A stretch of 64,000 nucleotides of DNA from Dictyostelium discoideum (lineage: Eukaryota), in the NCBI GenBank assembly GCA_000004695.1, contig CM000150.2:3872001-3936000 (forward strand), given 5' to 3'. The translations under genes and the position numbers were made by a program. Numbering within the stretch: the stretch's first letter is position 1; every line of letters starts with the position of its first letter. Shown here piece after piece: positions 7,789-56,109 of the stretch. A model generated the notes under the pieces. It had not been told where the DNA came from, did no database searches, and was given only the letters and a program-made list of their open reading frames with translations.

Positions 7789-8003
7789 AATCAAAAAAAA
7801 AAAAAGAAAACAATAAAAGAATAATAATAATAAATAAAAAAAATAAATAAAAAGTAAAATATAAATAAGTGTTAAATTAATAATAAAATTGTTACATCAT
7901 CCACAATTATTTTAAAAAAAAATAAATAATAATTAAAAGTTATATATAAAGTTATTAAAAAAGTATTTTATTCTTTTATTTATTGATTATATTTTTTTTT
8001 TTT

Positions 8004-9446
8004 TTATTGAGATGAGATGATTGTAGTATTATTTGCAATAGTATTTGAAATATAGTATAAGAGTATACGCCATAATTGTAATACAAAATCATCAGCATTA
8101 TTTTCAAACACATCTCTAAGTTTTAAAATAATATCGGTTGGTTCTAAATGAGTTTTTAAGAGGTTTAAGATGAAATCGATCAATTCATCTTCCTTTGCAC
8201 CAAAGAACTCAATAACTTTTGTGGTGATCCAAGCTTTCATACTTTCATTGACAATTGTTGGATTCTTATCAACATAATTCCAATCAATTTTAAATTTAAA
8301 TATTTGTTCTCTATCATTTGATATTCTCGATAAATCAATACCACCATTTGAATTATTATTATTTGGTGTTGTTGTTGTTGTTGTTGTAGTTTCTGTAGAT
8401 TGTTGTTGTTTTTGAAGTTGTTGATATTGTTGTGGATTTAAAACTTGATCAATTTCATTATAATCCAATGGAATGAAAGTTTGTTTCTTTTTTGACATTT
8501 GTAAACTATTTTGTAATTCATTTTCAGATTGATTTTCATCATCCTCATCTATAGAGTTAAAACCTTTGCCTACTAATTTCAATTTTTTGTTATTATTGAT
8601 ATTACTACTCAATTGGATCCTATTTAATTCTTCTTCTTTTTGTCTCTTTAGTTCGAGTTCAGCCAATTCGGCCAATTCTCTCTGTCTATCTTTTTCATCA
8701 TCTTCTCTCTCCTTTTGTCTATATTTGATTGCTTCTCTTGATCTGATACGTTTTCTCATTTTCTCATCTGAATCTGAATATTCGTCCATTTCCAATTGTC
8801 TAGCTTTAATCTCTCTTTGTTCCTTCTCCTTTTCTTTCTCTTTCTCTTTCTCTCTATCAATTTCTTTGGTTCTCTCTCTTCTCTCCCAATTTTTCTCTCT
8901 CTCTTTGAAATCTTTTAAATCTCTTTCTTTATTCTTTAGCTCTCTCTCTTTGTGTCTTTGTTTCTCTTTTTCCTTTTCTTTTTCAATGATTTTAATTTTC
9001 TCTTCCTTTGTTAAGTCTCTTCTATCCTTATTATAGAAATCATTGATTTCATTTGATTCCATTTTCTTTTTCTCATAAATATTGATAAAATTCTTTTCAA
9101 CCATAGCCTTTATCGATTCCCTTAAAATGATATCTTGAGGTGAGTCTGATGATTGATCGGTTAATCCACCCTTCTTATCTAAATAATCACTGAAAAACTT
9201 TTGCCCTTTATCAACTTTTACAACTAATTTACCACCATCCCTATCAACCTCTAAATCATTAAGAACTCTCAATGCTGTAACTGCACCCTCTGCATGCTCA
9301 AATTCACAAAGTCCAAATTGTTTCAATTTTCCATTGGTATCTGATGCTCTATTCCATTTACTAACTTTACCACATTGATTTAATAATGATCTAATAAATG
9401 AATCTTCTACAAATTGTGGTATTTTACCTATATATGCTGTTGTACT

Positions 9447-10178: not shown

Positions 10179-10584
10179 TTTTATTTTATTTTATTTTATT
10201 GTATTTTTTTTTTTTTTTTTGTTTTGTTTTTATTTTATATAAAATTTAATTTACTTTTATATTTAATATCTATCCAATCTAAGTTTATTAAATTTTCACT
10301 TTTTTTTTTTTTTTCTAATTATCTATTTCTCTCCCTCTCTTTATGAATTATTTATATTTATTATGTCAAATTATTATTATATTATTATTACTAGTAATAT
10401 TATTATTATTATTATTATTATTAAACCTTTTTGATCGATATTCAGCAATTCACAAATATACACCAAACTTTCATATAAAACATTATTTAATATTATAAGT
10501 TATCAATTTTAATATTTGTGTTATGAGGAGAAAATGTAAAAGATCTGTTGAAAAATTTTCAAAAAAATATAAAAAAAAAAAAAC

Positions 10585-10900
10585 TTTTTTTTTTTATTTT
10601 TTTTTTTTTATTTTTATTTTTATTTTTATTTTTGGTAAATGAAAATAAGACTTAATTTTGGGTTGAATATTTTTTTATTTTTGATTAAATTATATCGAGT
10701 ATATAGAATTTGTAATTAATGTTTTTTTTATTTTTTTTTATTTTTATTTTTATTTTTTTAATTTTTATTTTTATTTTAATTTTTATTTTTGGTAAATGAA
10801 AATAAGAGTTGACTCGAAATTTAATTTTGGATTAAATATTTTTGGAAAACAATTTTATTTTAATTTTTTTTTTTATTTTTGATTTAATTATATCAAGTAT
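10585..10900. repeat. Two tandem copies of an approximately 150-bp intergenic unit (..tttttggtaaatgaaaataaga..ttttgg(a/g)tt(g/a)aatattttt..gattaaattatatc(g/a)agtatata(g/c)aattt..).
   Basis: Direct comparison of 10590-10720 with 10735-10915. Confidence 0.6.
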
Positions 10901-11217
10901 ATACAATTTTTATTTTTAAATGTTTTTTTATTTTTTTTTTTTATTTTATTTTATTTTATTTTATTGAGTAATTTACAATTATCTGGTTTAAATATAAATT
11001 GTCATTTTAAAATACTTTAACGACAAACCAAAATATCACAATTACAATTTCTAATGCAGTAATTTGAAGTTGAACCCATTGTTATACTGAAAAATTAAAA
11101 TTAAAATTAAAATATTAGTACACAACCTTTTTATTTTTATTTATATATATTTCATTCACAAAATAATAAAAATGAAAAAAAAAAAAAAAAAAAAAAAGAA
11201 TTAGATATATTTATTAC

Positions 11218-11583
11218 TTACTGATCATTATTAATAAGACCAACACGACCTAGACATAAAACATCAATGGATTTATCTTCAACTACTTTAACTATAATAT
11301 CTTTTGGTGTACCCTCAACACGTATTGCTTCTACATTATTAATTAAATATTCATTTCTTGCTAAATCTTCATATTTCTTTAATAATGCATCACCATTGTC
11401 AAACATTCCTTGTTTAATATCTGAAATTAATGTCATATCAAAGTTTGTATTTGACATCATATAATGTACTAAATCTACAACTACAAGTAATACAATTGTA
11501 TCTGTTTCTTTGTATAAATTCATTGCCTTTAAAAATGCTTTATGAGAATTTGCACTACCATCTATTGCTATTAAAAATTTCAT
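11218..11583 (-). CDS. Universal stress protein (UspA family), 121 aa, single exon.
   Basis: MKFLIAIDGSANSHKAFLKAM..TIVLLVVVD.. is the typical USP alpha/beta fold signature. Confidence 0.75.
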   Translation of the reverse strand: MKFLIAIDGSANSHKAFLKAMNLYKETDTIVLLVVVDLVHYMMSNTNFDMTLISDIKQGMFDNGDALLKKYEDLARNEYLINNVEAIRVEGTPKDIIVKVVEDKSIDVLCLGRVGLINNDQ

Positions 11584-11753
11584 TTTCTTGATTGGTCTTG
11601 ATTTTTTTTTTTTGATTATTTTTTTTTTTTTTTATTTTATAAATTCGAGAGTGATTCTAAATTTATTCTTTTAATTAATAATATTTCTTAAAATACTATT
11701 TTTTTTAAACAGGAGAAATAGAAAAGGGTTATTTTAATTTTTTATTATAAAAA

Positions 11754-11788
<35 letters not shown>

Positions 11789-12396
11789 CAGAAATTACAC
11801 GAAAAAAAAAAAAAAAAAAAAAATTAAAAATAAAAAAAATAATTTTTAAAAATGAAATTGTTTACCAGGTTTATAGATATTAAAAATAAAAAAAAAAATT
11901 TTAAAAAAAAACAAAAAAAAAAAATTAAATTGAGAAGTTCAATATTTTAAAATTAAATTGACCAATTAAAATAATATTTATTATTATTATATTTTCCCTT
12001 ATAAGGAATGAAGGGTTTTGGCGATATTAAAATTTTTTTTTTATTTTTCTTTTTTCAACTTGATAAATGTAAAAAAAAAAAAATATTTAATAAGAAATTT
12101 CAATAATTTAATTTTTTATCGTCAAAAATGTATCCTATTGAGTAAAATGTTGTTTCTTTGTATATGGAATTTAAAAAAACATCAATGATAGAGAGAATAA
12201 ATATTTTTCAATATCATTATGGTCAATATCAATTATTTGGATCCAGTGTCAGAGATAATAAATCTATCAATGCGCTACGACTTCAACAAAAATAACAAGT
12301 ATACTTGTTGGATTAATTTAATCGTCATCAACAAAAATAACAAGTATACAATTTTCAAATATTTTTAAATGAATGTCATAAATTAATCCATATCAT

Positions 12397-12431
<35 letters not shown>

Positions 12432-12501
12432 ATAATTTAAATAAAAAAATCAGAAATTGTTTTTAAACAAGAGTGAATTAATTTATTAATTAATTAAGCT
12501 T

Positions 12502-13310
12502 TTAAAGATCTCCCATACAAGTGGATGTTTTATAAAAACCAACTGGATTTTTTACTTTTTCTTCTTCTTCAGATGATTGAAGGAATGGTTGTTCAGTAAT
12601 ACAAACGTAGTTAAAGAATTCACTAAAAATATTAATTTTTTTTTATATTTTTTATAAGTTAATAAAATATTAAATATTTAAAGTTTTTTTAAAAATTTTA
12701 AATAGGATAATTCTTACTTTGAACAGTATGGCATACCATTGTAAACACCACAAGAACGAGTATAGGTTTCTTTGTAAACATTACAGTAAACAATTTCTTG
12801 ATCTTCTGTATCGATGGCAGTGTAGTTGGTTGCAAATGATGCAAATACAATATCATTGGTTGAGCAACCACTACCATGAGTGAATGAATTTACCCATGAA
12901 AATTTTGGATAGGATGGTGTATTACTTATGGTGACCAAGTAAGAGTGGGCTTGTTTTGGAGCAAAATAACCATCAAAGTAATGTTCACCAATAGTTTCAA
13001 TGCATTCACCATTGGAAACAACCATAGTTTCACCTTGTGGCTCTGAACAATCTAAGTGAGAACTTGTACCATTTGCGAAATAAGAGTATTTGACTGATGA
13101 GGAATCTGAAGATAATGAAAACTTCCAATTTCTAAAAAAATCAAAAGTTATACATGAATCAACTGGTACAGAATATCCAACACCTCTAACATGGCTGTTA
13201 CCTCCGTTACAGTTTGATCCTTTTTCATATGGAATAAAGTTTACATATGATGTGGATAATACTGTTGCTACTGATAATGTTAATAATAATAATGATAAAA
13301 TAACTTTCAT
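12502..13310 (-). CDS. Secreted Cys-rich protein with signal peptide MKVILSLLLLTLSVATVLS. Proposed exons 12718..13310 and 12502..12622, with a 95-nt AT-rich intron.
   Basis: The track ORF ends at a TAA that overlaps a GTAAG donor (..TCA AA|GTAAGA). A downstream acceptor tttttag|T restores an open frame through NEFFNYVCITEQPFLQSSEEEEKVKNPVGFYKTSTCMGDL*. The unspliced form (12714..13310, 198 aa) remains possible. Confidence 0.5.
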
Positions 13311-13720
13311 TTTTTTATTTTTTGGTATTAATCTTTCTTTGTTAATTAATAAAATGAAAAAAAAAAAAAATTAAAAGAAAAAATTTATCTTATTTATATC
13401 ACTAAAAAAAAAAAATTATTAAAATAAAAAAAAATAAAAAAAAACAAATATTAAAATTTATTGGTTTCCATTTAAAAAATCGTATTTTCGATTGGTTCTA
13501 TAAAAAAATTATTTCCCGGCTGTTGAAAAAAAAAAAAAAAAAATTCAAATTTCCTCGGTTCCAATCAATTTTAAATTGAATGACCTCCTTGACTCATTAA
13601 AAATGGAATATTTCTTTTTTTTTTTAAGTGAATTAACACTCAATTACTAATTATTTTTATTTTTATTTTTTTTTGATAAAGGAAGGTCATAGAAATAATA
13701 TTATTTTCCATGTGAACAAT

Positions 13721-13755
<35 letters not shown>

Positions 13756-14059
13756 AACATTGATATATAAAAATATTTTTAATAATAATAAAAAAAGTAG
13801 TGTTCGTGTTTTAGTTTATTAAAAACATTAACAAATTTTTAATTCAATGAATATCAACTCTTTTTTATTTTTTTTTTTTTTATTTTTTTTTTTTTTTTTT
13901 TTTTTTTTTATTATTAAAACTTTGGTGTGTGATAAATTTAATAAACCTTAATTGGTTTTGATCAAAACATAATCGGCATGTTATTTATTAAACAATAAAA
14001 TACAAAACTTGATCGTTTTAATTCTTTTAAAAAAAAACTTCGAAAAGAATAATGTTCGG

Positions 14060-14098
<39 letters not shown>

Positions 14099-14179
14099 TC
14101 CAAATTTCACTTTTTAAAACTTATTCATTGATGGAATTGAGAGCTAATTTTTTAATAAATTGGAATCTTTACTGAATAA

Positions 14180-14223
<44 letters not shown>

Positions 14224-14300
14224 TTATTTAAATAATTTTTTTTTTTTTTTTTTTTTTTCTAAAATATTAAACAAGTAAAAGAAATTCAAAAAAAATAAAA

Positions 14301-14597
14301 ATGTCATCAACCCAAGTAAATGTTTTCGCAACATCAATTGTAAAACCAGAATTTGTAGAAGAATTTATTAGTTTTTTTAAAACAGTGGTTCAAGAATCAA
14401 ACAAAGAGGATGGTGTTATTAAATATGATTTAAATCAAGATTTTGAAAATAAAAATATTTTTTATATTTATGAAGAGTATAAATCTATGGATGCATTGGA
14501 GTATCATAAAACAACCCCACATTTCTTATCAATGCTCAAATTTACAGAAGGGAAAATTTTAGATCTTCAAATTAAAATTTTTAAACCAATTCAATAA
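14301..14597 (+). CDS. ABM-domain (antibiotic biosynthesis monooxygenase / Dabb-like) small protein, 98 aa.
   Basis: Sequence pattern ..VKPEFVEEF..KEDGVIKYDL..FYIYEEYKSMDALEYHKTTPHF.. Confidence 0.65.
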   Translation: MSSTQVNVFATSIVKPEFVEEFISFFKTVVQESNKEDGVIKYDLNQDFENKNIFYIYEEYKSMDALEYHKTTPHFLSMLKFTEGKILDLQIKIFKPIQ

Positions 14598-15189
14598 ATT
14601 AAAAATTTAATTAATTTAAAATAAAAATAAAAATAAAAAAAGTTTTTTACACATTTTATTTTTTAAAATAATTTTATTCTTTATTTAATTTTAATTAAAA
14701 TTTGTTTTGAATTATAATTTTATTGAAATATTTTTTTAGTTTTTTTGAAAATTTTAGGGGGGGAATGAAATTGTCATCTATTATCGTAATGTCATAGTGC
14801 ATAGATAAATCTTTCCTTTCTCTGACACTAGTTTAATATTGATCATTTTTTTTTATTTCCCTTTGGATAGTATTGATATGATCATTAGCTTTTCTAAATG
14901 ATATAGTGCATAGATAAATCTTTCCTTTCTCTACCATTAGATTGGTTTTGAATTCATATCATATTACTACATTTTCTTTAAAGGTAACAACTTAATAATT
15001 CTTTTTTTCTATATTATTTAAAAGAAAAAATTAGAAAATTATTTTTTTTTTTATTTATTTATTTTTATTTTAATTCTTTTTTACCTTTTTTAACTTTTTT
15101 CTCTTTAATTCTATCTTTAATCTTTTAATTTCTTTGTTTTGAAATAATACTATTTCATTTTATTTGTTTTAATTCTTTGGTTTGGAATG

Positions 15190-25215: not shown

Positions 25216-28200
25216 ATGTCACAACCACCAATTTCAAACAGACCATCAACGATTGCAGCAAATGGTGGAAGTCTTGTATCACCAAATAGTATAGTTAATA
25301 GTAATAGCAATAGTAGGGGTAATTTAACTGGGGGTAGACCATTACCCTCACCACCAATCAATACTAGTTCAGGTTCAATAAATGTAAATAATAATAATAA
25401 TAGCAACAATAATACAAATGGGGGTGTACCAGTTTCATCATCACCATTAAAATCGCCACCACCATTAAAACCAAGACCAAAAACTTTATTAACACCAGTT
25501 GCACCAATTGGTTCACAAAATCCTCAACCACCTTCATTACAACAACAACAACAACCACAACCACAACCACAAAATACATCATCATCAAATTTATTACAAC
25601 AACCATCACCATCGCCATCACAGCAACCACCATCACAGCAACCACCATCACAACAACAACAACAACAACCACCATCACAACAACCACCAAAATCTACATC
25701 ACCACCAGCTTTACCAAGAAGAGAATGGCCTCCAAATAATACTAGCAGTGGTAATTTAAATAGTTTAAATAGTAGTGGTGGTAATGTTATAAATAGGCCA
25801 CAACCAGTTGCTGATAACAGTAATAATAATAATAGTAATAAACCAGTAAATGTAACAACACAACCGCCACAACCACAAACTACACCAATAAAACCAGCAT
25901 CAACCGCTCTACAATCAACTCCAATAAAAGAAACAACAACAACAGCAACAGCAGCAACAACAACACCAGTATCAGTTCCAACACAAACAGCAGTACCAGT
26001 TGCACAAGAAACTTCATCAACAGTAACACCAATTAAAATTAATAATCTTGAAGCATCAGGTCAAACAACAGAAAGTGGTAATAATTCAACATCAACTAGT
26101 ACACAATCATCACCATCAACATCTACACCACCAACACCAAACTCATCAACATCAACCACACCATTATCAACATCAACTACACAATTAGCACCCCCACCAC
26201 TAGCACCACCATTATTCAACACACCACCAATTAGTGTTTCTCAATCAACCTCAAGTGGTAATTTAAATAGTTTATATTCATCATCAGCACCAACCAATTC
26301 AGGTATGGCCAATTATAAACCAATTTCACCAAATTCTAGTATAATCTCACCAAGTAAACCTGAACCATTGGTTTTACCATCTTCAATTTCAACAACCACT
26401 ACACCAACAAATAGTACTCCAAATACACCATCAACTCAGCAACAACAACAACAACAATCATCACCAAATAATACAAATGAAAATAAACAAAAAAGAAATT
26501 CATTAGGTGAACAAACTTCAATAACATTAGAAAAAATGGCACAAGAATCATCATTAACCATCAATGAAAAGGATGAAGAGGAAACAAACGATAGTAGTGG
26601 TAAAAAATCCAAATCTAAACCAAAATTATTCCCACATCAATGGTCAATGGGTAAACCATCGGAAAAAGATGCTAAAAAGGAGGAGAAAGAACGTAAAGAA
26701 AATGAAAAACGTGAAGAGAAAGAACGTAAAGAGTTGGAAAAACGTGAGAAAAAAGAACGTAAAGAAAAGGAGAAATTAGATAAAAAAGGTGAAAAAGGTG
26801 ACAAAACAGAAAAAGATAAGGAAAAAGAGAAAGAAAAGGAGAAAGAGAAAGAGAAAGAAAAAGAGAAAGAGAAAGATATAAAATCTGGTATTGAAAAACC
26901 ACCACCACTCTCTAGAACATCTTCATCATTTGCCTCGAAATTAAAACATGCAACTTTAAGAGGAGGTAAAGTGAATGACATTGATGATACCGACTCAAAT
27001 AGTGGTAGCAGTGTTGGTAATAGTCCATCATTGACAGCACAAAGAGATACAAGAGGTTCATCAGTTCCTCATCCACCAGTAAATATTTCCACCTCCACCA
27101 ATTCAGCAACAACACCATCATCATCGTCATCGTCCACTCCAATCTCATCACCACCACCATCACTTTCATCATCTTCAAATATTGCAATATCATCATGTTC
27201 AGCATCAAATCTTTCAAATGTTTTGGCAGATAATAGTGGTTCAAGTACTGGTACAACACCAACAGACGGATTTTCATCATCACCACCAAATGGTCAATCA
27301 CCATCATTATCATCGACAGCACATCGTTCAGCTATTCATTTGGATACAAGCCGTGGCTTAATGACATGGGGATCAGCATCAAATTGTAAATTAGGCTTCA
27401 AGGTCACAGCAAAAGATCAATCACAACCAACACCAGAAAGATTACCAAATTTCAATATTCCAGACATTTGTTCGATTTCCTCAGGTTCCTATTATAGCTC
27501 TGTATTGACAGAGAATGGTGATGTCTATCTTTGGGGCCGTGGCGCTGTAAAGACACCAGCCGTTCCAATTTTAGGTATTCCACAAATTGAAGATCAATTA
27601 TTACCATTCAAATTAGAGTCACTCTCTGATGTTGTCTCTGTTTCAATTGGTTTTTGTCATGGTGCAGCCGTTAGAGCCAATGGTGAACTTTTAACTTGGG
27701 GTGTTGGTGAAAATGGTCAATTGGGTCATGGTGATACAAACAATCAAATCGAACCAAAGATCATTCAATCACTCACTAGTTTTTGGATCACCCAAGTACA
27801 ATGTGGTGAGAAACATACTATTTGTCTCACAAAGAATGGTAAAGTTTATTCATGGGGTGCTTCAGAGTATGGACAATTGGGTTTGGGTGATGTTACACAA
27901 CATTCCTCACCAATGCAAGTCAGTGCCTTGGAGAAATATAATGTACTTCAAATTGCAAGTGGTTCAACTCATTGTGCAGTTTTAACCACATCAAAAGAGG
28001 TCTTGGTATTTGGTAATGGTGCAGCTATGGGTGCTGCAAGTGTTGTAAGTTTACCAACATTAGTACCATCATTGAAATATCTTCACATTGATAGACTATG
28101 TTGTGGTCATTATTCAACCGCTGCTATCACAGAATGTGGTGATGTCTATACTTGGGGTACTGGTCAAGAATTAGGTCATGGTGGTAACTCAACTGAAACC

Positions 28201-31200
28201 TCACCAAAATTGATCGAAGCATTACGTAATCAATCAATTCGTCAAATTAGTTGTGGTGGTCGTCATACTGCATTCTTGACTGATTCTGGTAGAATTTTTA
28301 CTTGTGGTAAAGATTCATTCGGTCAATTGGGTCAAATGTCAGGTGATCAAAATAAACCAAAAAGAATTGAATCCTTAACAAAGACAACATTCATTTCAGT
28401 GTCATGTGGTGAAAATTATAATGTTGCATTATTTGATACCACAAGATCATTTAGAGATAAATTCTGTTGGAAATTATTAGAAACTCAAAGAACCTATGTT
28501 AGAACTTTAGATATCATCCAAACCATATTTTTAAATCCACTTAGAATTCGTGATCGTGATTTGTTACCAGAATCAATGAAACATTTACCATACATTTTCT
28601 TATCGGAAGAAGAGATTAGAACCATTTTCGGACCAATAGAGAAATTGTATGCATTGAATTCAACATTACTTCATGTTATGAATAAAAGATTTGCAAATTG
28701 GTCCAATAAAAAGAAGGTTGGTGATGTTTTATTGAATCATTTCAAACATTCCGAAGATACATTCATTCAATATATGGAGAATTTACCATTGGCATTGACT
28801 TGTTTAGATAACCTTTGTAAGAAACAAACTGCACCAATCATTGGTTACCTTAAAGAATGTGAAAAACTTGCATTGGATAGAAAGAAGATCGATACTGATG
28901 ATGATAGTAAAGAATTTAATTTACGTTCATTATTGATAGAACCATTGAATATCATTTCACGTTATCATAAAGCAATCAATGGTATGGTTAAATATACAAA
29001 AACCACTCATATCGATTATAGTGGTTTGGTTGATTTAGATGGTATCATGGAGATCAAAGTAAACAAAGTTACAAATATTCTAAACATTACACAATCACCA
29101 TCATCAATGGCATCTTACACTACCTCAAATCCAACGGTTACAGCAGTTTCAAGTTCTTCCTCTGAAAATAGTGAATTCCTCAAAGAGTATGATATCAAAT
29201 TGGAAGCATTACAAAACTTTAAGAAAACATGTACAAAGATCATAAAATCCTCAAAGAAATACTATGAAGTTGAACCAGATTCCTTCAAAGAACAAGGTCA
29301 TTTCTCTGAACATCTTATCAATGTAAAAGCTTGTTTCGATGGTAATATCGATCCTGCATTGGCCGCTTCAATCGATCAATTCTCTAGTAGCATTAAAAAG
29401 ATTGGTTATCTTCGTTCAGAATTATCAACTCGTACTCATACCTCATTTGCTCAACCATTATCAACTGTCGCCGATGAGTTGGAAAACTTCCTTCCATTGA
29501 TTACTGAAATGAGAAAACGTGTTTTCGAATCTCATACTGAGTATGAAAATGCTGTAAGTAAACTCTACTCTTTGGCAAAGAATTTACAACCAACTGAAAA
29601 GAAAATGATTGAAGCTGAAAAGGAAGTTGCATCACTTAAAAAGGTTTTGGATAAAACTTTGTTTGAATTTGATGCAATCTTTAAGGAGGGTATTTCCATT
29701 CAAACTAAATCACTTAAACTATTCTATGCCTGTATGAAAGCACAACAAGAATACTATGAACGTGGTTTACAAAGATTCCAAGCCATGAAACCTTCTTTCG
29801 ATGCATTGGATACTTACTTTAGACAACAAAGTAGAAATACTTGGGCTAAATCAATTTTCGAAACTGTTACCACAACTTTTACTCAAGAGAAGGGTGCTCC
29901 AACTCCATCATTAACAAGTATCAAATCAACTCCAATTATTCAATCTCAATCATCTGCTTCTTCTACTTTACAAATACCACCATCAGATATTGCTGCTGCT
30001 CCTTCTTCTACTCCATCTTCTGCTCCTTCTCCATTGGTATTGGCTACTCAATTAAATTCTGTAAATAACACTGATATGTCTGCCAATAGTAGTACACCAT
30101 TATCTTCAACTCCAAAAGAACAACATCCATTCGCTTTATCTGAAAATATTGAAAAAACTGAATCATCACCATCAACTAAACTACAACAACCAACTATTAA
30201 TGCCACAACTACAAATACCACCACTTCACCAGTAGCTACTACAACTGCAACAGCAACAACAAATAATAACACTGCATCATTATTAGATCCACACCAAATT
30301 ATGACAGAATTAGAACAATCAGATTGGACATTCCTTATGGATCCACCAGCAAGTAATGAGTTTACAGATACATTCATAGAGGAACAATATAATGGTTTAG
30401 TTGAAATTTTAGCATCACCATCACTTCAAGTAGCTCAATGCGTTGTTAGTGCAGCACCATCAGATCAACAATCTCCAACCATTGAATCTATTTCAAGAAT
30501 ATTTGAAAGTTTCAATAAGATTCGTCCAATTATTCATTCTGGTATTGAACAAGAGGTATTGTCAACTGCTAATCCATCCACTTTATTCCGTTCCAATACA
30601 ACCGCTACTAAGTTGATGACAGCATTCACAAAACTCAAGGGTATGCCATACCTTCAAAAACATATCACTCCATTAGTACGTGAAATCATTGATAATCCAA
30701 ATGGCTATGAAGTAGATCCAGCTAAAATCAATGAAGGTAGTGAAGAGTTGATGACAAATATGATGAATCTCATTCAAATTTGTGAGAAATTCACAGATGC
30801 CATCATTGATTCCGTCGAAAATTTACCAGCTTCCCTTAGAGAGATTTCATCCTATCTTCAACAAGAAGTCGTAAAGAAATTCCCAGACAATAAGTATAGC
30901 AGTGTTGGCGGTTTTATTTTCTTACGTTTCCTATGTCCATCAATTTTGGCTCCACATACAAGTGGTTTGGTTGAAGAACAACCAGGTCCAGAAGCAACAA
31001 GAGCCTTGGTTTTAATTGGCAAAGTACTTCAAAATCTTGCAAATGGTATAGAGTTTGGTCAAAAAGAATCATTTATGATTCCAGTCAATCGTTTCATCAT
31101 TGGTAATGTCACTCGTTTAAATAATTACTTTGATAAACTCACCAATGTTCCAATGTACACATCATCCGATTCCATAAGTACAACATCAAGAGAGGAGGTT

Positions 31201-31350
31201 CAAAAGGATATTCGTAACATTCATCTCCTTATTGTTAAAAACCTTTCAAAATTAGTCAAACAATTGGCACTTTACAAACAAAAAGAGATTATAGGTCAAC
31301 TTTCAAAAACTTTAGTTTTCTTAGGTGATCCATCTTCAATGTATAAATAA
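25216..31350 (+). CDS. Large multidomain signalling protein, 2044 aa: low-complexity N terminus, KE/EK repeat, RCC1-type beta-propeller repeats, DH (RhoGEF) domain and C-terminal RasGAP domain. Apparently a single exon.
   Basis: RCC1 repeats include WGSASNCKLGF, TWGVGENGQLGHGD, SWGASEYGQLGLGD, TWGTGQELGHGG and TCGKDSFGQLGQ. The DH domain runs ..LLETQRTYVRTLDII.. to ..LRSLLIEPLNIISRYHKAINGMVKYT. The RasGAP block is FRSNTTATKLMTAF..GGFIFLRFLCPSILAPH with the FLR arginine-finger context. Confidence 0.8.
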   Translation: MSQPPISNRPSTIAANGGSLVSPNSIVNSNSNSRGNLTGGRPLPSPPINTSSGSINVNNNNNSNNNTNGGVPVSSSPLKSPPPLKPRPKTLLTPVAPIGSQNPQPPSLQQQQQPQPQPQNTSSSNLLQQPSPSPSQQPPSQQPPSQQQQQQPPSQQPPKSTSPPALPRREWPPNNTSSGNLNSLNSSGGNVINRPQPVADNSNNNNSNKPVNVTTQPPQPQTTPIKPASTALQSTPIKETTTTATAATTTPVSVPTQTAVPVAQETSSTVTPIKINNLEASGQTTESGNNSTSTSTQSSPSTSTPPTPNSSTSTTPLSTSTTQLAPPPLAPPLFNTPPISVSQSTSSGNLNSLYSSSAPTNSGMANYKPISPNSSIISPSKPEPLVLPSSISTTTTPTNSTPNTPSTQQQQQQQSSPNNTNENKQKRNSLGEQTSITLEKMAQESSLTINEKDEEETNDSSGKKSKSKPKLFPHQWSMGKPSEKDAKKEEKERKENEKREEKERKELEKREKKERKEKEKLDKKGEKGDKTEKDKEKEKEKEKEKEKEKEKEKDIKSGIEKPPPLSRTSSSFASKLKHATLRGGKVNDIDDTDSNSGSSVGNSPSLTAQRDTRGSSVPHPPVNISTSTNSATTPSSSSSSTPISSPPPSLSSSSNIAISSCSASNLSNVLADNSGSSTGTTPTDGFSSSPPNGQSPSLSSTAHRSAIHLDTSRGLMTWGSASNCKLGFKVTAKDQSQPTPERLPNFNIPDICSISSGSYYSSVLTENGDVYLWGRGAVKTPAVPILGIPQIEDQLLPFKLESLSDVVSVSIGFCHGAAVRANGELLTWGVGENGQLGHGDTNNQIEPKIIQSLTSFWITQVQCGEKHTICLTKNGKVYSWGASEYGQLGLGDVTQHSSPMQVSALEKYNVLQIASGSTHCAVLTTSKEVLVFGNGAAMGAASVVSLPTLVPSLKYLHIDRLCCGHYSTAAITECGDVYTWGTGQELGHGGNSTETSPKLIEALRNQSIRQISCGGRHTAFLTDSGRIFTCGKDSFGQLGQMSGDQNKPKRIESLTKTTFISVSCGENYNVALFDTTRSFRDKFCWKLLETQRTYVRTLDIIQTIFLNPLRIRDRDLLPESMKHLPYIFLSEEEIRTIFGPIEKLYALNSTLLHVMNKRFANWSNKKKVGDVLLNHFKHSEDTFIQYMENLPLALTCLDNLCKKQTAPIIGYLKECEKLALDRKKIDTDDDSKEFNLRSLLIEPLNIISRYHKAINGMVKYTKTTHIDYSGLVDLDGIMEIKVNKVTNILNITQSPSSMASYTTSNPTVTAVSSSSSENSEFLKEYDIKLEALQNFKKTCTKIIKSSKKYYEVEPDSFKEQGHFSEHLINVKACFDGNIDPALAASIDQFSSSIKKIGYLRSELSTRTHTSFAQPLSTVADELENFLPLITEMRKRVFESHTEYENAVSKLYSLAKNLQPTEKKMIEAEKEVASLKKVLDKTLFEFDAIFKEGISIQTKSLKLFYACMKAQQEYYERGLQRFQAMKPSFDALDTYFRQQSRNTWAKSIFETVTTTFTQEKGAPTPSLTSIKSTPIIQSQSSASSTLQIPPSDIAAAPSSTPSSAPSPLVLATQLNSVNNTDMSANSSTPLSSTPKEQHPFALSENIEKTESSPSTKLQQPTINATTTNTTTSPVATTTATATTNNNTASLLDPHQIMTELEQSDWTFLMDPPASNEFTDTFIEEQYNGLVEILASPSLQVAQCVVSAAPSDQQSPTIESISRIFESFNKIRPIIHSGIEQEVLSTANPSTLFRSNTTATKLMTAFTKLKGMPYLQKHITPLVREIIDNPNGYEVDPAKINEGSEELMTNMMNLIQICEKFTDAIIDSVENLPASLREISSYLQQEVVKKFPDNKYSSVGGFIFLRFLCPSILAPHTSGLVEEQPGPEATRALVLIGKVLQNLANGIEFGQKESFMIPVNRFIIGNVTRLNNYFDKLTNVPMYTSSDSISTTSREEVQKDIRNIHLLIVKNLSKLVKQLALYKQKEIIGQLSKTLVFLGDPSSMYK

Positions 31351-32826: not shown

Positions 32827-32925
32827 AAAAAAAAACAAACAAACAAACAATAAAAAATAAATATATTTATATATATATATATATACTTTATTATATATAT
32901 ATAATAATATATATATATAATAATA

Positions 32926-34193
32926 TCAATCTTTATAAATTATTGGTTCCCAAATATTATTATCTGTATTCAAATGAAATTGAGATATTTTCCAATTTAA
33001 TTTCTTTTGATACTCAAGTATTTTTGATCTCTCTTTTGAAATATTAATTTTTTCACCCTTGCTAATTGGTACTATAATATCTTTCCAAACAATTGAAGAA
33101 TCTGTTGGTAAAATATCAGGAATTATTTTTGTAAAATAATTAAATGGTCTTTTATAAAGAAGTTTAGTTTCTTTAGTTTTACAATTTATAATTTCCATTT
33201 CATTTGACCAAGAACCATTTATTTTAAATAGTGGATTTGGATCATCACCATATAATAATTTAGCCTCAACCATATTTACATTTCCACCAATTAATGGTTT
33301 TGCAAGATTTGTTTTTTTTATATAATATTTTGAATTTTTAGATGTAATGGTAGTTTCACCACAATATTCAACAAATCCTCTTAAATAACGACCATAGAGA
33401 GTTGGATTGGTTATTGTATACTCTTCATTAAATTTTTCAAAACGAATAATAATATTACCAATTATTGGTAGTTTAATATTTGTTCCATTAAAAATTGTTT
33501 TTGTTTCAGTATTAAAGTGTACTTTTACACCTTCTCTTTTATTATAAATACATGATCCAACAAAAGCTTTTTCTTGATCCAATGTCTCTACCATATAGTA
33601 ATTATCTTTAATTATTTTTTCACTTTTATCTTGTTCATCAATAATTGTAACGTGAAAATTTGAACTTTTTGTTTCACCATTAACCGAACGAAGTGGTGAT
33701 CTAGTTGAATCTTCAATAATAGGTTTTATTGATAAAATATATTTAAAAACTCCTAATAATCTTTCAATTTCATTGTCTATATTTGATCTTTTTTTTTTAT
33801 TTTTTTATTTTTTTTTTTTTTAATCAAAATTAATTTTATTAAATTTAAATTTAAATCAATAAAATAATTGAATATTTACTTTAATAAAATATCAAATTCC
33901 CTTGCCATATTATCTGAATAATATTCATGTGTTGAATGGGGGAGTAAAAAACTTGACGCAAATTCAAAATGAGTTAAATCTGTTCCAATACCTATACCAT
34001 TTTTTTTAATAAATGAAAGAACAATGTGTAGTCTCGATGCACCAGAATTTTCAAGCTTTTCTAAATTCTCAATTTCTAAATCAGTTGGTGGTGATAGTTC
34101 TTTACAAGTTGTTTTAACATCAACTTCATTTTCTTCTTGATCAATAATTTCTTCTTTTTTATTATTTTTATTTAATATTTTAGTTTTTGCCAT
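32926..34193 (-). CDS. Oxysterol-binding-protein-related (short, ORD-only) protein, paralog A, 391 aa. Exons 33880..34193 and 32926..33787.
   Basis: Donor is TTA TTA AA|GTAAAT and acceptor is aaaaag|A TCA AAT (phase 2+1). The ORD lid-like N terminus is ..[34 protein letters not shown]. The LGET box is ..[13 protein letters not shown]... The tandem paralog B 1 kb downstream has clearer OSBP motifs. Confidence 0.65.
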
Positions 34194-34623
34194 TTTTATG
34201 TATTTATTTAAATAAACATAAAAAAAAAAAAAAAGAATTTAATTATTTATACCTTTTTTTTTAAATAATATTATTGTGGTTTAAAAAAAAAAAAAATTAC
34301 TTTAATTGTTATAAATTTAAAAAAAAAAATAAACAAACACCAGATGAGATAAAATCTTATTTTTTATTTTTTTTTTGTATAAAAAAAAAAAATAAAAGAT
34401 TTGTAAGTTTAATTTTTTTAAAACTATTTACAAATCGATTAATATTTTCAAATAAAAAAAACACATATAGAAAAATTAATTATTATTATTATTTTTTTTT
34501 TTTTTTTTAATTGTTGTGATCATTTTTTTATTTTCACAATAATTTTTATTATTATTTTATTTTTTTTTTTTTTTTTATAAATTTATTTTTAAAAATGTTA
34601 TTTATAAAATTAATTAAAAAATT

Positions 34624-35837
34624 TTAATCATTTAATAATTTTGGTTCCCAAACACCCATTTCAAGATTTAAAAAGAATTGTGATGGAGCCCAATTTAAAG
34701 TTTTTTGATTTTCAATTATTTTTGATTTTTCTCTTGCTAAATTGATAGGTTTACCTTGAGCAACAGATTGAATGATTTTACCCCAAACTACACTTGAATC
34801 AGTATTTAAAATTGTTGGAGTGAAATTTGTAGTAGTTGTAATATTTTTAAAGAATGGTTTTGTTTCATTTGTTTTTAAATTTGTTATTTTACTTTCACCA
34901 TCCCATTGACCACTAATTTTATATATTGGTTTTGAATCAATACCATTATAAACTTTAGCTTCATATGCATGATAATTACCACCAATTAACGGTTTTGCAA
35001 TATAATTTGTTGAAACAAAACATTTTGATTTATTTGATTTAATTGAACCTTCACCACAATATTCAACGAAACCTCTCATGAAACGACTATGTAAAACTGG
35101 GAATTCAATATCATATTCCTCATCAAATTTATCAAAACGTACATATTTTCTACCAGTTGTTGGGGTTTTTACATTTGTAATTTGAAATACAATCTTTGAT
35201 TCATGGTTAAATAATGCTTTTACGCCTTCCTTTTTATTATATATACAAGTCGCAGTATTTGGTGGTAATTCACTAACTTGTTCAGTTATTAAATAATTAT
35301 CTGAAATTAAATCATTTGGACTATTTAAATCTGGTGTTTGAAAATTTAATGATTGAGTTTCACCAATAACTGCATTCAATGGAACTTTCATACAATCTTC
35401 TGGAATTTTATGTATTGTTGTTGAATATTTAAAAACTTCAATTAATCTATCCATTTCATTTTCAATTTTATTTGCACTAAAAATAAATAAAAAAAAAAAA
35501 AAAAACATAATAAAATTAAAATTATTATTATAAAGGATTGTTTTTTTATAATAAAAAAATTAAATAAATACCGTAATAAAATATTGAAATGATTTGCAAA
35601 ATTATTTGAAAAGAAATTTAAAGTTGAAAAAGGTGCTATAAAAGATGATGGATATTCCACTTGTGATAAATCACTTCCAAGTCCTAATCCTAATCTTTTT
35701 GCCATACTTGCAATCGCTACTATCTTTGATTGAGATGAATTATCAATTGCATCCATTTCTTCTTCTGTTAATTTCCCTGGTTTAACTCCATTTTCTATAC
35801 TATTCTCTTCTGTTAATTTTCTATCTGATTTTCCCAT
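34624..35837 (-). CDS. Oxysterol-binding-protein-related protein, paralog B, 372 aa. Exons 35572..35837 and 34624..35476.
   Basis: Donor is TTA TTA CG|GTATTT and acceptor is tttttag|T GCA AAT (phase 2+1). The lid is ..KIVAIASMAKRLGLGLGSDLSQVEYPSSFIAPFS... KVPLNAVIGETQSL resembles the OSBP KKPxNPxLGET box. LITEQVSELPPNTATCIY is a degenerate EQVSHHPP fingerprint. Confidence 0.7.
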
Positions 35838-35999
35838 ATTCTTTTTTATTATTTTATTTTTTGTATAAAATTATTATAATAATTATATTTAAAAATTAAA
35901 AAAATTACCACTGTTTTTAACAAATAAATAATATTTTTTTAATTTAAAAAAAAAAATATAAAATATAAAATAACAATTAATTATTTAAATAATATTTTT

Positions 36000-36042
<43 letters not shown>

Positions 36043-36171
36043 AAGATAAAAAATAACAATAATCTTTTTTTATCTCACAAATTTTAGAACCCACACACAC
36101 ACAATAATAGTAATTTTTAATGGGCTAAAATAGCATAATATATTTAAATATAATTTTGGAGATTCAAACCT

Positions 36172-36209
<38 letters not shown>

Positions 36210-36490
36210 ATGTAAAATTTTGTAGTTTGGCAGTAATAATGTGAAAACATTAAAGTAAACACCATTTCAATATTAATAAATAAAGACAATTAATGGACCA
36301 ATTAAAATAATTATTGAACAATTTCATACAAGTTATTAAAAAAAAAAAAAAAAATTACATTGAAATGCTATTTACACGCTATTTCTTTTTATTTTTTTTT
36401 TTTTTATTTATTCTTATTTAAGACATAATTGAAATATTAATCATTTTTAATAGATTTTGAAATTGAGGTTGCAAACTAAATATTTAATTA

Positions 36491-37660
36491 TTAAAATAGA
36501 AATAAAATTAGTAATCTTTTTTTTTTTTTTTTGGTTTTTTTTTTATGGATAGAAAAATTATATATAATTTTTACATTAAAAGAAGTTTCTGGTAATAAAT
36601 ATAATTGAGTTTCAGAAGTTGGAATTTGAGATAATTTATCTAAATAATTTGAACTAACCAAATAACCAGTTGTACTAACATTTGAATTATCAATACCTTT
36701 ACGAATGAGACGAATTACCTCGGCGTCAGCTTGACTTTTTAAACGTTTGGATTCAGCAAAACCTTTAGCATTTTGAATGGATACAGTTTTATCAGACTCT
36801 GAAGAGAGTACGACCTTTGCAGCCAAACCTTTACTTTTTACAATCATACTTTCTTTTTCACCTTCAGCATGGAGTATAACGGATCTCTTTTCACGATCTC
36901 TTTGTATTTGCATCTCCATTGCATGTTTAATATCTTTTGGAGGTCTAATACCAGCTACCTCGACACGTTTAATAGTGACACCCCATCTTTCAGCATCTTT
37001 CATTGTACGTTCTTTCAATTGTGAATTAATGAATTCCCTCGATGAGAATGTATCATCTAATGTCAATGTTGCAATAATATTACGTAGAGTAGTTTGTGCT
37101 AACAATTCAACAGAGTCTGGTAAATTTTGAACTGAATACACAGCTGCCATTGGATCTGTCACTTGAATATACATTAGGGCATCTATATTAATTTGAACGG
37201 TATCTTTGGTAATAACATGTTGTCTTCCAAATGTAATAACATGTTCTCTCATATCGATTCTATCAGTATTTTGAATCATGACTTGAGTTTTCTTTGCACC
37301 AACAGGTAAATCAACATATCTCCAATGTATAACTCTTGGTGAATCTATAAAAGGTGCTAAAATATGTATACCAGGATTTAAAATTCTATGATATCTACCA
37401 AATCTTTCAATGATCATAACTTCAGTATGTCTAACTATCTTTATTATCTTTTTTGAAATTATTAATGTTAAAAATAATATTGAAAATACAATTATATACA
37501 ATGCTATTGCCAATCCAACTCTGGCATTTGAGTCTTCTCCATCACCACCACCACTATTATTGATATTATTATTTGGTATAAATGTACTACTACTATCTGC
37601 CCATGTTCCAACAATTCTATCACCATTAGTTTTTAAATAATCTAATATTTCAATCCCCAT
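36491..37660 (-). CDS. SPFH/band-7 stomatin-like protein with an N-terminal TM segment, 389 aa as unspliced. The C terminus is uncertain.
   Basis: Core is ..IIERFGRYHRILNPGIHILAPFID..VQINIDALMYIQVTDP..LAQTTLRNIIATLTLDDTF..IRPPKDIKHAMEMQIQRDREKRSVILHAEGEKES.. The last 27 aa (VKIIYNFSIHKKKTKKKKKRLLILFLF) read like A/T-tract read-through. An alternative terminal intron (AAT|GTAAAA .. tatttag|TTT GCA) would end FATSISKSIKND*. Confidence 0.7.
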   Translation of the reverse strand: MGIEILDYLKTNGDRIVGTWADSSSTFIPNNNINNSGGGDGEDSNARVGLAIALYIIVFSILFLTLIISKKIIKIVRHTEVMIIERFGRYHRILNPGIHILAPFIDSPRVIHWRYVDLPVGAKKTQVMIQNTDRIDMREHVITFGRQHVITKDTVQINIDALMYIQVTDPMAAVYSVQNLPDSVELLAQTTLRNIIATLTLDDTFSSREFINSQLKERTMKDAERWGVTIKRVEVAGIRPPKDIKHAMEMQIQRDREKRSVILHAEGEKESMIVKSKGLAAKVVLSSESDKTVSIQNAKGFAESKRLKSQADAEVIRLIRKGIDNSNVSTTGYLVSSNYLDKLSQIPTSETQLYLLPETSFNVKIIYNFSIHKKKTKKKKKRLLILFLF

Positions 37661-56008: not shown

Positions 56009-56022
56009 TTGTTAAAAATATA

Positions 56023-56095
56023 TGAGATAGATGGGGATCGAACCCACGACCTAACCCGTGTGAAGGGCTCGTGATAACCACTACACTACTTTCCC
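56023..56095 (-). tRNA. tRNA-Val (anticodon CAC), 73 nt.
   Basis: Sequence GGGAAAGTAGTGTAGTGGTTATCACGAGCCCTTCACACGGGTTAGGTCGTGGGTTCGATCCCCATCTATCTCA. The A box TAGTGTAGTGG and B box GGTTCGATCC are intact. The anticodon stem is AGCCC/GGGTT and the loop is TTCACAC. The acceptor stem has one A.A mismatch and one G.U pair. The D arm is identical to vertebrate tRNA-Val. Confidence 0.65.
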
Positions 56096-56109
56096 ATAGG
56101 CTGGAATGT

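Follow-up and report, generated by a model that had tools for sequence, protein, structure and literature searches.

Do all members of the oxysterol-binding protein (OSBP) family depend on phosphatidylinositol 4-phosphate (PI4P)? General reviews place the EQVSHHPP signature in all OSBP-related domains (ORDs), regard PI4P as perhaps the common ligand of the OSBP-related proteins (ORPs) and leave open whether every ORP works as an exchanger. Two tandem genes of Dictyostelium discoideum, osbC and osbB, bear on this question. They are located in a 64,000-nucleotide (nt), AT-rich stretch of DNA (CM000150.2, positions 3,872,001-3,936,000), referred to here as the window, and all coordinates are positions within it unless stated otherwise. 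Both had been picked out from the letters of the window alone as short OSBP-family genes with degenerate fingerprints (the original prediction).

34624..35837, minus strand: osbC, encoding OSBP3 (paralog B), 372 amino acids (aa); exact match to XP_646419/Q55CR2 (OSB3_DICDI); Pfam PF01237, E 8.7e-28
32926..34193, minus strand: osbB, encoding OSBP2 (paralog A), 391 aa; exact match to XP_646418/Q55CR3 (OSB2_DICDI); Pfam PF01237, E 1.9e-18; ORD fold in the AlphaFold2 (AF2) model

The answer favoured here, with a probability of about 0.7, is that osbB and osbC encode functional ORD lipid binders in which the pocket for the PI4P head group is dismantled, and that the proteins are probably unable to extract PI4P. 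The identity, structure and fold of the two, the residue replacements and their conservation, purifying selection and a tree are documented below. The loss of PI4P binding is argued from point mutants of yeast Osh4, and any ligand named is a suggestion.

The PI4P contact site

In Osh4, the 4-phosphate of PI4P is held by H143, H144 and R344, the 1-phosphate by K109 and K336, and the inositol hydroxyls by N112 and E340 (De Saint-Jean et al. 2011, PMC3241724). The Osh4 mutants K109A, N112E, H143A/H144A (HH/AA), E340A, R344A and K336A show normal sterol loading, with the PI4P response abolished. PI4P-dependent transport is reduced ninefold in HH/AA, which together with K336A has the largest transport defects (PMC3241724). 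The corresponding motifs of the two Dictyostelium proteins are as follows.

35260..35283, minus strand: osbC fingerprint EQVSELPP, residues 154-161; Osh4 H143 is E158 and H144 is L159
33565..33588, minus strand: osbB fingerprint ETLDQEKA, residues 172-179; H143 is Q176, H144 is E177 and PP is KA
35356..35388, minus strand: osbC K-box KVPLNAVIGET, residues 119-129; K109 is V120, N112 is kept as N123
33670..33702, minus strand: osbB K-box, residues 134-144; K109 is S135, N112 is R138
34702..34731, minus strand: osbC helix alpha-7 motif EKSKIIENQK, residues 338-347; K336 is kept (K339), E340 is I343, R344 is K347
33004..33033, minus strand: osbB helix alpha-7 motif, residues 357-366; K336 is R358 (K in other species), E340 is L362, R344 is K366

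As originally predicted, EQVSELPP and ETLDQEKA stand in place of the signature, aligning column for column with the EQVSHHPP of ORP8 and Osh4. Six of the eight positions are identical in osbC, with both histidines gone, and one of eight in osbB; the orthologues in four other genomes are likewise degenerate. The histidine positions of osbC are occupied by E followed by L, F or V in 5/5 orthologues. A histidine pair at a shifted position is ruled out: neither an HH nor an HxH motif occurs anywhere in the full osbB or osbC protein, and profile alignments set E-L and Q-E under H143/H144. The claim that both paralogs keep the K.P.N..LGET box holds in part, as osbC keeps N112; K109 is lost from both, and N112 also from osbB. 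The lysine retained in the osbC K-box (K119) corresponds to Osh4 K108 and not to the PI4P-contacting K109.

The seven contact positions were mapped on a 119-sequence alignment and on a second, independent alignment. The residues are given below for 108 generic short ORPs (each residue present in 100% of them), for Heterostelium P0017, and for the osbC and osbB groups of five sequences each.

K109: generic K; Heterostelium K; osbC group V/I; osbB group S
N112: generic N; Heterostelium N; osbC group N; osbB group R/C
H143: generic H; Heterostelium H; osbC group E; osbB group Q/E
H144: generic H; Heterostelium H; osbC group L/F/V; osbB group E/Q
K336: generic K; Heterostelium K; osbC group K; osbB group K (R in strain AX4)
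E340: generic E; Heterostelium E; osbC group I/M; osbB group L/Q/I
R344: generic R; Heterostelium R; osbC group K; osbB group K/R

In AX4 the seven positions read, in order, V, N, E, L, K, I, K in osbC and S, R, Q, E, R, L, K in osbB. Contacts unchanged from Osh4 thus number 2/7 in osbC and 0/7 in AX4 osbB, against 7/7 in 108/108 generic short ORPs and in Heterostelium P0017, the closest outgroup. By alignment, the 4-phosphate triad H143/H144/R344 is replaced in full (E/L/K in osbC, Q/E/K in osbB), along with K109 and E340. Glutamate is found at the H143 position in eight of the ten osbB/osbC sequences, and the only contact that is broadly retained is the 1-phosphate lysine K336 (9/10 orthologues). 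The original prediction, in which the two PI4P-contacting histidines were lost, was correct and understated the change, since the wider site is also replaced. Its further proposal, that PI4P counter-exchange has been lost or the ligand changed, is strengthened by contacts that differ at 5/7 and 7/7 positions; at the level of function we still infer rather than observe. Around the sterol-contact residues (Q96, Y97 and others) pairwise alignment to Osh4 is unreliable.

Two codons of osbB vary among the genomes compared. Codon 358 (33024-33032) encodes R at the K336 position in AX4 and K in the four other genomes; codon 138, at the N112 position, encodes C in D. cf. discoideum and R in the others. 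Within the species complex the osbB pocket continues to drift.

If the Osh4 mutants are a guide, osbB and osbC would still load a ligand into the hydrophobic tunnel, either sterol or another lipid, as Osh4 HH/AA does. Being unable to extract PI4P, they would not carry out counter-exchange driven by a PI4P gradient. They would act instead as passive single-ligand carriers or sensors, or would bind a different polar head group. It is probable that both are naturally occurring exceptions to a universal use of PI4P by ORPs.

Fold, conservation and selection

The assignment to the OSBP family made in the original prediction is confirmed by strong matches to the Pfam profile Oxysterol_BP (PF01237), at 66.9 bits (E 1.9e-18) for osbB and 97.6 bits (E 8.7e-28) for osbC against a cut-off of 28.9 bits. 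In both proteins the match spans only profile positions 3-262 of 368. PF01237 is the sole domain found in each by the Pfam scan, which fits the short, ORD-only class of ORPs. A phmmer search of the Protein Data Bank (PDB) sequences matches ORP8, Osh4/Kes1, Osh6 and ORP3. The two proteins are 44% identical, osbC giving the stronger sequence matches, and of 99 columns with a conservation of 85% or more among generic short ORPs they keep only 37 (osbB) and 38 (osbC). On these alignments they are very divergent ORDs.

The osbB model (AF2, 119-sequence alignment) is an ORD fold, confident across the whole domain, with a mean predicted local distance difference test score (pLDDT) of 83.7 and a predicted template modelling score (pTM) of 0.82. 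In a Foldseek search of this model against the PDB every one of the best 35 matches is an ORD (target-normalised TM-scores 0.56-0.74, E-values down to 2e-20); they include ORP8, Osh6, Osh4, ORP3, OSBP, ORP1, ORP2, Osh3 and Osh1. Both genes encode a complete ORD, consisting of an N-terminal lid helix, a beta-barrel and C-terminal helices. Homology to the OSBP/ORP family is secure; EQVSHHPP is a hallmark of the family and no condition of homology.

Orthologues of osbB and osbC are present in D. cf. discoideum, D. citrinum, D. dimigraforme and D. firmibasis. The gene order Band_7 - osbC - osbB - ankyrin-repeat gene, together with the single intron, is the same as in the window in 3/3 species whose loci were read. 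Pairwise ratios of nonsynonymous to synonymous substitution (dN/dS, Nei-Gojobori) are 0.17-0.26 for osbB and 0.17-0.27 for osbC, with synonymous divergence (dS) of 0.37-0.86. Among the local controls, the Band_7 neighbour gives 0.03-0.07, a 2044-aa gene 0.04-0.10 and the ankyrin gene 0.18-0.21. Both osbB and osbC are under clear but moderate purifying selection. The replacement residues of the pocket are conserved in chemical type across species.

These data bear on the proposal that osbB and osbC are decaying duplicates, either functionless or pseudogenes-to-be, in which relaxed selection has eroded the motif. In keeping with decay, just 37-38 of the 99 conserved columns are left, the dN/dS is 3-6 times that of the adjacent Band_7 gene, the Pfam match is partial and an apparently frameshifted copy is held in an array of D. 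purpureum described below. Set against this are open reading frames (ORFs) that are intact and an intron conserved in four species, dN/dS well below 1 at dS of up to 0.86, replacement residues that keep their type and an osbB model confident over the whole ORD. Decay is highly improbable. As an account of the pair in the four Dictyostelium species analysed it was rejected, on the intact ORFs, the conserved intron and the dN/dS of 0.17-0.27.

Origin of the pair and the competing readings

A profile search of 1.8 billion representatives returned 1158 relatives. SHHPP stands at the fingerprint of nearly all of the best 148 outside the osbB/osbC representatives. The clear losses within these 148 are all dictyostelid, namely D. 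purpureum DICPUDRAFT_74116, D. citrinum P0024, which is a paralog at an unlinked locus beside Nckap1, and Cavenderia fasciculata P0021. Partial variants of the motif (SHRPP, SHQPP, SQHPS) are found elsewhere in scattered eukaryotes. A broad 35-sequence profile search for other D. discoideum paralogs returned generic fungal and protist ORPs only, and none was found by a composition screen of representative hits with cluster look-up of the motif-variant hits; osbA, osbE and osbF of the twelve D. discoideum OSBPs stand outside these comparisons. In C. fasciculata, the gene model P0018 (XP_004366473, 828 aa) contains two complete ORDs and adjoins the ORP gene P0022; either it is genuine as a double-ORD protein, or annotation has fused two tandem genes.

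At the Band_7-adjacent position of D. purpureum (GL870943.1, locus L004:8001-14870) there are four tandem ORP copies, listed in L004 coordinates.

8001-9363: copy c1
10314-11599: copy c2
about 12175-13355: copy c3
13648-14870: copy c4

The annotated 402-aa gene DICPUDRAFT_44602 (P0020), which spans 5.3 kb, was rejected as a single gene: it is a chimera in which the 5' part of one ORP is fused to a 3' exon that belongs to another, at a distance of 4 kb. In c3, which may be a pseudogene, exon 1 is without a clear ATG and appears to carry a frameshift. All seven PI4P contacts are kept in c1, c2 and c3; c4 is without HH and R344.

Neighbour-joining trees with 300 bootstraps were built on the whole alignment and on two partitions, the four hand-curated D. 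purpureum copies replacing the chimeric P0020. In all partitions osbB and osbC form a clade with 95-100% support. A second clade unites D. purpureum c2, c3 and c4 (92-100%), with c3 and c4 together at 99%, and c1 falls, with weak support, beside the D. discoideum-group genes. The loss of HH and R344 in c4 is independent, since its sister c3 retains them (99% bootstrap). The osbB and osbC groups have derived states in common, namely the loss of K109, H143 to E, E340 to a hydrophobic residue and R344 to K. osbB and osbC are a lineage-specific tandem duplicate pair of short ORPs. Since they form one clade and c1 at the same position in D. purpureum is intact, the PI4P site was probably lost before the duplication.

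From the tree and the shared derived states, the most economical reading would begin with one ORP gene, its site intact, adjoining the Band_7 gene. The site would have been lost in the stem of the D. discoideum group, followed by a duplication to give osbC and osbB. Further erosion of osbB would have come later, with EQVS becoming ETLD, PP becoming KA and N112 becoming R.

R344 is replaced in 5/5 lineages without HH, by K in osbB, K in osbC, E in D. purpureum c4, K in D. citrinum P0024 and K in C. fasciculata P0021. K336 is kept in all five, the R of AX4 osbB apart. Judging from these alignments, the three residues of the 4-phosphate triad seem to be lost together, while the phosphodiester-binding lysine stays. 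The losses counted fall in the osbB/osbC stem, in D. purpureum c4, in the D. citrinum P0024 lineage and in C. fasciculata P0021. The balance tips slightly towards OSBP2 and OSBP3 being evolved, selectively maintained PI4P-independent ORPs, with the triad discarded as a unit in the five HH-less lineages, at least three times independently. If true, there would be a PI4P-independent sub-class of ORD, which would transport either a different lipid or, with no gradient to drive it, the same cargo, and the view of PI4P as the ligand common to all ORPs would be contradicted.

Several points weigh on the other side from the favoured reading of the pair as PI4P-blind lipid binders. osbC retains N112 and K336, and its R344K change is conservative; in osbB an arginine has arisen at N112, and positions 336 and 344 stay basic. 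Judged by these residues, the proteins may accept an anionic head group of some kind, perhaps even a phosphoinositide in another pose. The AF2 model of osbC (11-sequence alignment) has a pLDDT of 56 and, at this low confidence, was not used. The dN/dS of both genes, near 0.2, exceeds that of the Band_7 neighbour and resembles that of the ankyrin gene. The trees were built by neighbour-joining only, and a recent duplication may be mimicked by gene conversion acting between the tandem copies. The searchable literature, where a single paper mentions osbB and osbC by name, holds no biochemical, ligand, localisation, expression or knockout/phenotype data for OSBP2 or OSBP3.

The first of these points leads to the proposal of a rebuilt pocket, in which the proteins would still bind PI4P or another phosphoinositide and stay counter-exchangers. 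The candidate contacts are K339, K347 and N123 with K119 in osbC, and R138, R358 and K366 in osbB. Besides the K336 retained in nine of ten orthologues, this proposal can draw on the basic residue at 344 in both groups, on the N112 kept in osbC and the arginine gained there by osbB, and on the ORDs of ORP1 and ORP2, which accept other phosphoinositides (PI(4,5)P2 structures 5zm6 and 5zm8, among the fold matches). It is nevertheless unlikely. Each change at these Osh4 positions abolishes the PI4P response, HH/AA most severely (PMC3241724), and glutamate for H143 in 8/10 orthologues sets a negative charge at the place of the 4-phosphate. K109 and E340 have given way to residues without charge, most of them aliphatic (V/I or S; I/M/L/Q). 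All seven residues are kept in 108/108 other short ORPs, and the canonical set is therefore argued to be required.

The ORD may also have been co-opted outside lipid transfer, as a ligand-gated regulator or scaffold in development, a role proposed for OSBPa/osbA in culmination. OSBP1 (osbA), 2, 3, 5 and 6 make up one separate published cluster, a developmental phenotype is attributed to OSBPa (Fukuzawa and Williams 2002, as cited in PMC10117887), and some ORPs are sensors rather than exchangers according to reviews. Against this, the searchable literature offers no direct evidence of such a role for OSBP2 or OSBP3, and the retained lid and barrel fit lipid occupancy. Co-option is unlikely as an explanation of the pair; it and the favoured reading of PI4P-blind lipid binders are not mutually exclusive.

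The locus, the published record and known systems

The head-to-tail arrangement of the paralogs and their lengths of 391 and 372 aa were borne out by splice models and by an exact-sequence look-up, in which both spliced translations equal the AX4 database proteins letter for letter. They are already annotated and already named D. discoideum AX4 genes, osbC upstream and osbB downstream. The exon structure was also described accurately, including an intron of about 90 nt at the same position. Each gene has one GT..AG intron, and the split codons K105 (osbB) and R89 (osbC) fall in the same alignment column. The spacing was not: the paralogs had been placed 1 kb apart, and the measured gap from the osbC stop to the osbB start is 430 nt (1644 nt from start to start). 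This spacer would presumably hold the 3' end of osbC and the promoter of osbB.

35837..35572, minus strand: osbC exon 1
35571..35477, minus strand: osbC intron, 95 nt, phase 2
35476..34624, minus strand: osbC exon 2, including the stop
34193..33880, minus strand: osbB exon 1
33879..33788, minus strand: osbB intron, 92 nt, phase 2
33787..32926, minus strand: osbB exon 2, including the stop
34194..34623, minus strand: AT-rich intergenic spacer, 430 nt, seen in the sequence
36491..37660, minus strand: Band_7/SPFH-domain gene, upstream neighbour; an ORF, with Pfam Band_7 found on some same-position orthologues, the other loci having unannotated genes of matching length and position

The Band_7 gene serves as a synteny anchor, adjoining the ORP gene or genes in 5/5 Dictyostelium species examined. 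Between the convergent stops of the ankyrin gene and osbB is a 99-nt spacer (32827-32925) of almost pure (TA)n and (CAAA)n, and long tracts of poly(A), some 40 nt in length, occur upstream of osbC (35990-36045 and 36175-36210). Such low-complexity intergenic sequence is typical of Dictyostelium. Upstream of the ankyrin gene is the conserved single ORF of 2044 aa (25216-31350, plus strand; dN/dS 0.04-0.10), whose counterparts in D. firmibasis (2011 aa) and D. citrinum (2064 aa) are without a Pfam hit on record. The sole structured RNA reaching threshold within the window is a tRNA-Val with anticodon CAC (56022-56096, minus strand; ARAGORN and Rfam).

It has been reported that the motif is imperfect in 11/12 Dictyostelium OSBPs, only OSBP8 being fully conserved (PMC10653851). 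Given Anand et al., the degenerate fingerprint had therefore already been seen before. Vormittag et al. placed OSBP1, 2, 3, 5 and 6 in a cluster of their own; all 12 D. discoideum OSBPs are classed as short. A review (PMC10117887) states that OSBP1-12 contain the signature motif; this blanket statement is incorrect for OSBP2 and OSBP3, is at odds with PMC10653851 and merits correction. The annotated genes and the imperfect motif are thus already known, and both had been missed by the original prediction, as had the damage to the K-box. No paper found in the searchable literature notes the wider loss of the PI4P site, its recurrence or the conservation of that loss under selection. What is new here is the loss beyond the histidines and the fact that it recurs, a modest incremental insight and a testable hypothesis. 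With the genes annotated and the imperfect motif in print, practical value is modest. OSBP2 and OSBP3 would be natural equivalents of the PI4P-blind Osh4 mutants, kept by purifying selection, and in Dictyostelium, where knockouts and PI4P probes are routine, an ORD without PI4P could be put to a direct test.

Of the known systems, the sterol/PI4P exchanger Osh4/Kes1 of Saccharomyces cerevisiae (PDB 1zht, 3spw) is similarly ORD-only, with a lid, a beta-barrel and an alpha-7 helix; the sequence matches are significant and the fold matches have a TM-score of about 0.6. It differs in its PI4P head-group contacts, 7/7 of which are changed in AX4 osbB and 5/7 in osbC, and the osbB and osbC sequences resemble the PI4P-blind Osh4 mutants H143A/H144A, K109A, E340A and R344A combined. 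D. discoideum OSBP8 (osbH), the Dictyostelium ORP that has been studied, is from the same organism and the same short, ORD-only class. Unlike OSBP8, OSBP2 and OSBP3 are without the histidines and belong to the separate cluster with OSBP1, 5 and 6. The D. purpureum copies c1-c4 occupy the same position downstream of the Band_7 gene, belong to the same dictyostelid subfamily (88-100%) and have the first intron in the same place. That array has four copies, compared with two here, and its sites are intact in c1-c3, only c4 having lost HH and R344. The ORDs of human ORP8 and yeast Osh6, which are phosphatidylserine/PI4P exchangers (8p7a, 4ph7, 4b2z), are the best PDB sequence and structure matches. 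In contrast to osbB and osbC, both have a canonical HH site and bind PI4P.

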